From a virus (Duplodnaviria > Caudoviricetes): a stretch of DNA of 64,000 bases. A model generated the notes under the pieces. The model made no database searches, was not told the origin of the DNA, and was given only the letters and a program-made list of their open reading frames with translations. Shown here in pieces: positions 14,674-15,270 of the stretch (position 1 is its first letter; every line of letters begins with the position of its first letter). The stretch lies in IMG/VR virus record IMGVR_UViG_3300021431_004525. One strand, written 5' to 3'. A program made the translations under genes and the position numbers.

Positions 14674-15270
14674 TCTAAATGTGAGTTCCTATCGTTCCCG
14701 TAAAGCGTCCGCCTCCACCTCCAATGGTCGCAAGGCCGTTATAGGAAACTCACCGCACTACTTTGGAAATTCTTGCAAGTGTTGGTTGTGACCTCTCCAA
14801 CGTGTTTTTGCACGGGCCTAATCGGCTATAAGACCTTTACGTTCACATTAACCAACAATTTCCACTTTTCATGCCGGCACATCTCCTAAATCATCATCGT
14901 AATCACTACGTTAATGTAAACTCTCTTAGTACATGCCATTGTCAGAATTATTGCAAATCATTCCGACTGAGTTTATCCTTCTCGTCCCTGCGTTACCGCT
15001 TGCCAATCAGGCCCGGTCCGCAATCTGCGCTTGAAGGTTGAGCCACTTTCCGAAAGAGAACGTAGAGAGAACCGGATATGGCATTGCCACTTACACATGC
15101 AATGAAAGATTATAATCCAACAATTGACACGGGCGAATTTCATATAGTCCACTGACTTTAATTCGCAAAGGCGATGTGGCTTGTTCTCACTTTGGTCTAT
15201 GCTGCGGTATCTGTGCGTCACCGTTTCACCTATATAACGGGCTGCGTTGATTAGCGTCAGCAATAAGCCT
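14674..15270 (-). ncRNA. large (~600 nt) structured ncRNA, ROOL/GOLLD-like by size and context
   Basis: GC-richer, no credible ORF; long-range stems GTGAGTTTCCTAT/ATAGGAACTCAC, TGGAAATT/AATTTCCA, GTTGGTT/AACCAAC; abuts tRNA. Confidence 0.65.

Follow-up and report, generated by a model that had tools for sequence, protein, structure and literature searches.

A large RNA encoded directly upstream of a tRNA in jumbo phages of the ruminant gut, very probably representing an uncatalogued family of structured RNAs

The 64,000-nucleotide (nt) stretch of caudoviricete DNA analyzed here (referred to as the window; IMG/VR record IMGVR_UViG_3300021431_004525) carries, directly upstream of a tRNA-like gene, a block that is almost certainly a genuine structured RNA gene of an uncatalogued family. 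The original prediction, made from the letters of the window, had placed a large non-coding RNA co-transcribed with the tRNA at positions 14674-15270, and its central claim is sustained: the block is rich in compensatory base pairs, one promoter lies upstream, the gap between RNA and tRNA is 7 nt, the RNA-tRNA order is fixed in 15 of 15 family members, and one RNA contig covers positions 14707-15520. The 3' side of the predicted extent was retained, but the 5' boundary was set too short, since pairing and conservation continue to 15331, RNA contigs reach 15372 and 15520, and a conserved leader (15490-15408) belongs to the same transcript. The conserved core comprises approximately 650 nt (14681-15331) and the RNA species approximately 650-850 nt. 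Sequence comparison supports the view that the family is probably new, yet of the same kind, and in the same niche, as the phage RNAs ROOL and GOLLD. All coordinates refer to the window, and the RNA unit is read 5' to 3' on the minus strand.

The guanine-plus-cytosine (G+C) content over approximately 14500-15200 is 41-51%, compared with 25-36% in the surrounding DNA, in agreement with the G+C-elevated block noticed at the outset. Between approximately 15580 and 14570, the minus strand contains no credible reading frame under genetic code table 11, and neither TAG=Q nor table 4 opened a convincing one in the block. The longest frame is a 96-aa TTG-initiated open reading frame (ORF; 14973-15263), which could be taken to indicate a protein-coding gene or decayed pseudogene, in this or another frame. 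This ORF has no match in Pfam and is kept in no relative (the longest same-strand frame of L046, a homologous locus 91% identical to the window, encodes 46 aa), and the longest frames of the homologues vary in strand and position. Only about one third of the insertions and deletions in the homologue alignment are multiples of three, and the substitutions are compensatory within RNA helices. The codon-pattern conservation of ORF 14973-15263 that would have refuted the original prediction is absent, as the frame is not conserved and the indels show no bias to three; we regard the probability of a coding origin as negligible.

Relatives of the block were found through a 229-aa protein encoded 2 kb upstream, which has 33 homologues (29-94% identity). 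Gene order is conserved among their contigs, which at the corresponding position have a gap of 1.2-1.5 kb that is free of genes. The gap sequences of two of these loci, L022 and L026, are 69% identical to the window over approximately 780 nt, with dozens of alignment gaps, and a third, L023, shares only the leader and the 3' end with it. Motifs of this first alignment, scanned over IMG/VR and the JGI metagenomes, led to loci L035/L045 (one contig), L036, L037, L040-L043 and L046-L048; L066 was added later. The family thus defined has 15 members including the window (14 homologues), of 52-93% pairwise identity, from rumen and gut metagenomes. The alignment used below contains 14 sequences, the window included, L066 having been found after it was made.

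The phage contigs carrying the RNA are up to 392 kb long and encode phage-type genes. Exact matches of two neighboring proteins assign the window to a 391,794-bp scaffold from a gut or rumen metagenome, and copies with 100% identity exist in a JGI sample and a Logan assembly. Two related IMG/VR fragments of 43 and 160 kb are 11% and 44% complete according to CheckV, which points to genomes near 370-390 kb, i.e., to jumbo phages; the 160-kb contig (G001) begins downstream of the locus, and the 43-kb fragment (G002) lacks it. So far, the family is shown only in this clade of approximately 390-kb jumbo phages from ruminant gut and rumen samples. A DNA search of the "phages" collection gave only a tRNA-level match, and neither an exact 43-mer of the tRNA nor the 182-aa neighbor protein had a match in IMG/VR. 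Four IMG/VR matches to the pattern AGRGACAAGCCTTGACA were judged to be chance, as was the one short match (in Algoriphagus) of a domain-4 motif among 185,579 species genomes.

The evidence for a conserved structure is comparative. RNAalifold folded the alignment into 118 pairs, 45 of them with compensatory changes. A second consensus, built without the most divergent sequence and counted on the full alignment, has 159 pairs in 32 helices. The proportion of cells that are paired is 90.3%, versus 85.1% in shuffled alignments and 35-44% with slid partners, a figure that is flattered by the derivation of the structure from the same sequences; the counts of compensatory pairs are less affected. Fifty-three of the 159 pairs changed on both sides, versus 21.4±3.2 after shuffling (0 of 500 shuffles reach 53) and 14-22 with slid partners, so the lack of covariation that would have refuted the original prediction is not what is seen. 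The covariation score is 0.192, versus 0.121 (shuffled) and 0.04-0.06 (slid partners). The best-supported helices lie in the 3' half, e.g., 14847-14843/14791-14787 (UA/CG 7:5, GC/AU 8:5) and the helices of 14937-14876. Paired columns contain 232 G-U cells versus 59 A-C cells, and several G-U pairs are invariant, which identifies the RNA as the minus strand, the strand of the promoter, as had been claimed. A search for pseudoknots by covariation in the 14 sequences gave ambiguous candidates only; in one of them, AGAGAG of domain 3 could pair with CUCUUU of the domain-1 loop, but with one-sided changes only.

The RNA is abundant in metatranscriptomes. Positions 13900-16500 were compared with Logan contigs of four rumen/gut runs from four studies; such contigs give neither strand nor exact ends. 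In run X3, derived from the sample of the likely source assembly, a 666-nt contig (14707-15372) matches with zero mismatches at a k-mer depth of 424, compared with 2.7 and 7.1 for the contigs of flanking genes. The corresponding X5 contig is 814 nt long (14707-15520), again without a mismatch, and has a depth of 99 versus approximately 3 on the flanks. The depth of the RNA in these two runs is approximately 30-160 times that of the flanking genes, an excess which DNA carry-over cannot explain, as the flanks were compared in the same analysis. Contigs of the same RNA and of variants of it occur in X12 and X13, from two further studies.

Comparison with Rfam 15, which also covers the families that the original prediction had listed for scanning (ROOL, GOLLD, RNase P, tmRNA and introns), placed the RNA in none of them. 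The whole window was searched at the gathering level and positions 14000-16600 at E ≤ 10; among the homologues, L022, L023 and L026 were searched at the gathering level, eight loci at E ≤ 10 and five more at E ≤ 0.1. Besides chance-level matches to small nucleolar RNAs and microRNAs, the window and its 13 homologues matched tRNA only. For ROOL (RF03087), there was no match at E ≤ 10 in the window and eight homologues, and none at the gathering level or E ≤ 0.1 in five more; GOLLD (RF01998) had no match in any search of the window and the 13 homologues. Group I and II introns, RNase P, transfer-messenger RNA (tmRNA), 6S, OLE and HEARO gave no Rfam match at E ≤ 10, and ARAGORN detected no tmRNA in the window or in 12 homologue loci. 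Literature searches found no paper describing this RNA, which does not prove that it is unpublished. Between the two options first offered, a new class or a Bacteroidota-phage variant of a known one, the absence of Rfam matches makes the new class the better option and the variant the less favored one.

The following features were distinguished in the transcription unit:

15546-15577, minus strand: predicted promoter of Bacteroidota type, with a -33 element TTTG (15577-15574), a 20-nt spacer and a -7 element TAACTTTG (15553-15546); predicted start near 15538
15408-15490, minus strand: conserved 5' leader, with the AAAACCAACGA motif and two hairpins, an irregular one (15475-15431) and a small one (15424-15408)
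15332-15407, minus strand: linker between leader and core, with a conserved part (15407-15392) followed by an A+T-rich part of variable length (alignment columns 117-229)
15278-15331, minus strand: 5' block of the core, with GAGU (15329-15326), a hairpin (15320-15296) and a small A-U hairpin (15293-15278)
15041-15269, minus strand: domain 1, with sub-domains 15269-15194 and 15181-15041 and a pyrimidine-rich 18-nt loop (15071-15054)
14977-15037, minus strand: domain 1b (helices 14-15), in which a conserved CCUUC/GAAGG stem closes lineage-swapped hairpins (alignment columns 613-668), with a GUAA tetraloop in the window
14941-14967, minus strand: domain 2, a hairpin of 8 base pairs (bp) with an 11-nt loop containing the palindrome UUGCAA (14956-14951)
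14876-14937, minus strand: domain 3, a long and irregular hairpin found in each of the 14 sequences
14756-14873, minus strand: domain 4, branched, with the invariant unpaired motif ACUUGCAAGA and the palindrome CUUGCAAG (14779-14772)
14681-14753, minus strand: domain 5, terminal, with the closing helix GUGAGUU/AACUCAC and a G-rich loop of GGA/GGAGG repeats
14674-14680, minus strand: 7-nt spacer (AUUUAGA) that separates the tRNA from the last helix; putative end of the RNase P product
14597-14673, minus strand: tRNA-like gene with anticodon CAU, an encoded CCA, a non-canonical D-loop and the T-loop UGCAAAA instead of UUCGAAU
14570-14593, minus strand: putative terminator, a short hairpin (AUCUCA-AGUG-UGAGGU) followed by a U-run

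The comparison shows the core as a predicted string of at least six separately closed domains, and the helices with covariation support are local or mid-range ones that close these domains in succession. The 5' block is highly conserved in 14 of 14 sequences; its hairpin is 92% paired, with one-sided G-U/G-C changes, and in L023 its stem is shifted yet still pairs. Compensatory changes were found in 17 pairs of domain 1 (helices 4-13), in helix 16 of domain 2, in 13 of 22 pairs of domain 3 (helices 18-22), in 12 pairs of domain 4 (helices 23-29, 96-100% paired) and in helices 31-32 of domain 5, whose helix 30 is invariant in 14 of 14. The minimum free energy (MFE) fold equals the consensus in domain 2 (z = -4.2) and domain 3 (z = -1.95), and domain 5 has z = -2.4. 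The window, L046 and L041, and no other member, have a 45-nt insertion in domain 1 (approximately 15122-15078, minus strand), which makes a separate hairpin built around the palindrome GATTATAATC; one sub-hairpin of domain 4 is absent in L045. The palindromes CUUGCAAG and UUGCAA (the latter kept in 11 of 14 sequences), the pyrimidine-rich loop and the GGA/GGAGG repeats are candidates for tertiary or intermolecular contacts, or for contacts with the translation machinery. A reading of the G-rich loop as a VIPR guide RNA was rejected, because the loop consists of period-3 GGN repeats and not of the GGY/NN period-5 code (10.64898/2026.04.26.720920).

This architecture raises an alternative, namely that the block is a string of independent small structured RNA modules which are transcribed together and perhaps cut apart. 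Domains 2-5 are each closed by their own helix and each fold alone to the consensus structure. Two sequence variants of domain 5 are swapped among the members in a pattern that does not follow overall similarity (although 91% identical, L046 and the window differ there); L047 and L048 carry unrelated sequence in place of sub-domain 15269-15194, and L023 lacks domain 4. However, the single contigs of 666 and 814 nt span all the domains with zero mismatches, the order of the domains is fixed in 15 of 15 members, the linkers between them are only 1-4 nt long, and no promoter or processing signal was seen between them. We therefore consider separate modules unlikely.

The promoter is located about where the original prediction had placed one (15544): TTTG and TAACTTTG lie at 15577-15546, and RNA contig X5 starts at 15520, near the predicted start. 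We take it to be of the Bacteroidota type, following the Bacteroides promoter consensus. A strict pattern search over 14 family members located the motif TTTG-N17-23-TAnnTTTG upstream of the leader in seven, and the promoter region recurs at several sites of the same phage. A scan for sigma-70 promoters and terminators gave nothing above shuffled sequences and is unsuited to Bacteroidota. From the promoter type only, the host of the phage is inferred to belong to the Bacteroidota.

The leader is near-invariant in 13 of 14 sequences and still recognizable in the most distant one, with two compensatory pairs and several invariant G-U pairs. It is present in the X5 contig and absent from the abundant X3 contig, whose 5' end (15372) falls inside the linker; this difference suggests removal of the leader in some samples or, alternatively, a second start within the A+T-rich linker. 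The 28-nt head of the leader occurs identically in a second transcript, at 22585-22555 (minus strand; element 22519-22585). The leader hairpin is an enlarged form of a 35-nt unit of hairpin plus tail, composed of GG, a 5-bp stem, a GTRAMA loop, the other side of the stem and a AGTATAGTCTCC-type tail, of which the window contains six promoter-driven copies; the sites listed together with 22519-22585 (minus) are 11175, 12672 and 18876 (minus) and 20021 and 21179 (plus). In 401 Bacteroidota genomes, the 35-nt pattern gave scattered single matches at the level of the reversed-pattern control and never arrays, and the idea that the leader or the 35-nt hairpin copies a host CRISPR repeat was rejected.

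These features bear on a second alternative, an anti-defense decoy or sponge, made early in infection, that occupies a nuclease of the host, an RNA-guided effector (CRISPR or other) or a defense directed at tRNAs. A host-type early promoter and very high abundance would suit such a role, as would a leader that is a diverged copy of a hairpin RNA with six promoter-driven copies; from what is generally known of phage tRNAs, the partner tRNA could replace a host tRNA destroyed by the defense. Against this, no similarity to a known anti-CRISPR RNA or CRISPR repeat was found, the single matches of the 35-nt pattern in the Bacteroidota genomes are at chance level, and no defense or counter-defense gene is recognizably linked to the locus. 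Such a function appears doubtful.

The partner tRNA lies directly downstream of the large RNA, within a few nucleotides, in 15 of 15 members. In the window, the last conserved helix ends at 14681 and the tRNA begins at 14673, in accordance with the distance of approximately 7 nt given earlier. Positions 14600-14673 match the tRNA family RF00005 with 44.1 bits (gathering threshold 29), with a mismatch in the D stem and another in the T stem, and it is to the irregular D and T arms that we attribute the failure of ARAGORN to call this CAU tRNA. The anticodon is UAU (Ile) in eight members (L026, L040-L043, L045, L048 and L066) and CAU in four (the window, L036, L023 and L037). In the window, L036 and L023, the elbow of the CAU tRNA is non-canonical, its T-loop reading UGCAAAA or AGCAUAA, whereas the CAU tRNA of L037 is canonical (71.5 bits). 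In L022 (10224-10405), a CAU tRNA is split after C34 by an insert of approximately 117 nt, and the same 5' half occurs in L046, near the end of the contig. The L022 insert, too short for a group I intron, has one GTGAG...CTCAC hairpin and another, T-arm-like one (GGTTCAAGTCC). A CAU tRNA with lysidine reads AUA, as does a UAU tRNA. If the CAU copies carry lysidine, AUA may be what the partner decodes in every member, as would suit a phage of 30% G+C.

Downstream of the tRNA, a terminator-like hairpin is conserved in L022, L036, L041 and L043; the terminator scan did not report the hairpin at 14593-14570, which has too few G-C pairs. Two side observations concern the same region in relatives. 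In L023 (9289-9364) and L043 (8997-9072), ARAGORN found tRNA-like genes with the four-base anticodons gtct and gtcc, just upstream of tRNA-Arg(CCU), which may be frameshift-suppressor-like or aberrant tRNAs. In L066, a gene for an HNH-type endonuclease (4011-4529; weak HNH_3 match) directly follows the RNA-tRNA unit, and its insertion suggests that homing elements target the locus.

The constant position of the RNA, directly upstream of a tRNA of presumably one decoding type, could also mean that it is only a long cis-acting leader controlling the production, timing or stability of the AUA-decoding tRNA. The abundant RNA contigs, however, exclude the tRNA, the approximately 159 conserved pairs and many invariant loops far exceed the needs of a leader, and the other tRNA of the phage, Arg-CCU (16325-16400), has no such leader. 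We consider this role quite improbable.

The explanation that we favor overall, with modest confidence, is a structured RNA gene whose product is made as part of a tRNA precursor and acts in trans as a ROOL/GOLLD-like particle. Of its parts, the biogenesis from a precursor by RNase P is probable, while the particle function is a tentative proposal. Host RNA polymerase would start at the Bacteroidota-type promoter near 15538 and produce a single precursor composed of the leader, the A+T-rich linker, the large RNA, the 7-nt spacer, the AUA-type tRNA and the short terminator. RNase P cleavage at the 5' end of the tRNA would then free the large RNA, the invariant terminal helix would guard the new 3' end, and the leader would be taken off in at least some samples. 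The large RNA might act as a stable, abundant particle, perhaps associating with itself through the exposed palindromic loops, and early in infection it might bind part of the host's translation or tRNA machinery or keep it sequestered. On this view, it would be neither a messenger nor a ribozyme, nor simply a leader of the tRNA. In a more far-reaching version, which is speculative and improbable as a whole, the RNA would be a third independent "giant phage RNA beside tRNA", released by RNase P like MALAT1 and assembled through its palindromes into an RNA-only multimer that captures or shields the AUA tRNA or host ribosomal subunits with its pyrimidine-rich and GGAGG-rich loops. Such a particle, if real, would help an A+T-rich jumbo phage to translate in a G+C-richer Bacteroidota host.

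Several results weigh against this explanation. The MFE of the whole region 14674-15270 is no better than that of shuffled sequences (z = -0.21), which means that the support for the structure comes from comparative data and not from folding energy. The "multiple nested long-range helices" of the original prediction exist as helices with covariation, but they are mostly local or mid-range, and the sole long-range helix (GAGU 15329-15326/ACUC 14972-14969) has 4 bp. As this helix is near-invariant, covariation neither supports nor contradicts it, and one globular fold is unproven. The swapping, replacement and loss of domains among lineages agrees equally well with a string of modules and with one machine. 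As for palindromic loops as a dimerization signal, there is one conserved palindromic 6-mer, versus 0.7 expected. In a related lineage (L064, neighbor protein 52% identical), small coding genes and two tRNA-like matches occupy the place of the RNA, from which we conclude that the RNA is dispensable and accessory to the clade. No RNA contig bridges the large RNA and the tRNA; the contigs cover neither the tRNA nor 14335-14600, which says nothing about the tRNA itself. Finally, the X3 and X5 contigs, from two studies, stop not at 14674 but at 14707, in the loop of domain 5. This position precedes the tRNA by 33 nt and the end of the closing helix by 27 nt, and an X13 contig of lower depth extends to 14690.

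The stop at 14707 could be a cleavage site, a reverse-transcription stop or an assembly break. As a cleavage site, it would agree with a ribozyme that cleaves itself or processes the tRNA or another RNA, an idea to which the large size, the many invariant unpaired nucleotides and the tRNA neighbor also lend themselves. No Rfam ribozyme family was matched, though, the stop may equally reflect an assembly effect or the loss of a 33-nt fragment, and whole domains are dispensable in some lineages; a ribozyme is accordingly very improbable, and the precursor-derived RNA acting in trans is the reading we retain.

The other genes of the window are phage-like and include those for a tail-fiber-like domain, DUF932, a UvrD-type helicase and many small ORFs. 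An unusual phage cargo is the gene at 24440-26182 (plus strand), encoding a 580-aa protein with GmrSD_N and GmrSD_C domains, of a type IV restriction family directed against modified DNA, perhaps used against competing phages. A Lon-like ATP-dependent protease (50982-53402, plus strand; phrog_4871, E = 3.6e-168) and a large protein whose matches to ART-PolyVal and DUF3990 are weak and sub-threshold (62412-63998, plus strand) have counterparts of 66-68% identity in the related 160-kb IMG/VR contig.

Large structured RNAs of bacteria and phages are few, and the ribosome, RNase P, group I and II introns, OLE, ROOL and GOLLD have each yielded unusual biochemistry or architecture. The present family is tractable, having a clear promoter, a defined partner tRNA of presumably a single decoding type, naturally occurring variants with swapped or missing domains, and the RNA-less lineage L064 as a natural "minus" comparison. 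Its proposed biogenesis resembles that of eukaryotic long non-coding RNAs: a 2008 report by Wilusz et al. is said to describe how RNase P makes the 3' end of MALAT1 and MEN-beta at a tRNA-like element (mascRNA). Common to both would be RNase P cleavage before a tRNA-shaped unit and a terminal structure that guards the new 3' end. MALAT1, however, is eukaryotic and nuclear and ends in a triple helix, whereas here the structure is an invariant 7-bp helix and the cleavage is a proposal; moreover, the tRNA looks functional in most members of the family and not like a mimic.

The closest comparison is with ROOL (Rumen-Originating, Ornate, Large; Weinberg et al. 2017, PMC5737381) and GOLLD (Weinberg et al. 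2009), both studied by cryo-electron microscopy (cryo-EM; Kretsch et al. 2025, PMC12286853). The premise of the original prediction that these are large phage RNAs near tRNAs agrees with the literature: ROOL, with an average length of 581 nt, was found in the cow rumen, and both sit in phages or prophages near tRNAs (PMC5737381). They form RNA-only cages of unknown function, the GOLLD linker sometimes carries tRNAs, and ROOL can reach the abundance of 16S rRNA (10.1101/2024.12.08.627333). Like GOLLD, the present RNA is a large phage or prophage RNA that adjoins, or is co-transcribed with, tRNAs (one GOLLD lies next to a Met-tRNA), and conservation is higher in its 3' part than in its 5' part. 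Unlike GOLLD, it has no covariance-model match, is shorter (GOLLD exceeds 800 nt) and has the tRNA, of presumed AUA-decoding type, always downstream.

With ROOL it shares the origin from rumen samples, the encoding by phages beside a tRNA (found in 15 of 15 members), the size of approximately 600-700 nt and the very high abundance (contig depths of 424 and 99 versus 2.7-7 on the flanks). These likenesses, together with the similar sizes (ROOL on average 581 nt, env-120 659 nt) and the better conserved 3' half, as in GOLLD, could indicate a highly diverged ROOL or GOLLD member invisible to covariance models. We consider this very unlikely, since no match appeared at E ≤ 10 with permissive filters in the window and eight homologues, or at E ≤ 0.1 or the gathering level in five more, and since the structure is a chain of hairpin domains. 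The core of approximately 650 nt is similar in size to ROOL, but its approximately 32 helices form mostly serial, locally closed hairpin domains, with no pseudoknot established from the 14 sequences, whereas ROOL has six multistem junctions as well as three pseudoknots. The hosts are inferred to be Bacteroidota, versus mainly Firmicutes for ROOL. An unrelated family in the niche of ROOL and GOLLD, phage-encoded, tRNA-linked and extremely abundant, suggests that it is the niche and not the sequence that matters, and it offers an independent system for asking what such RNAs do.

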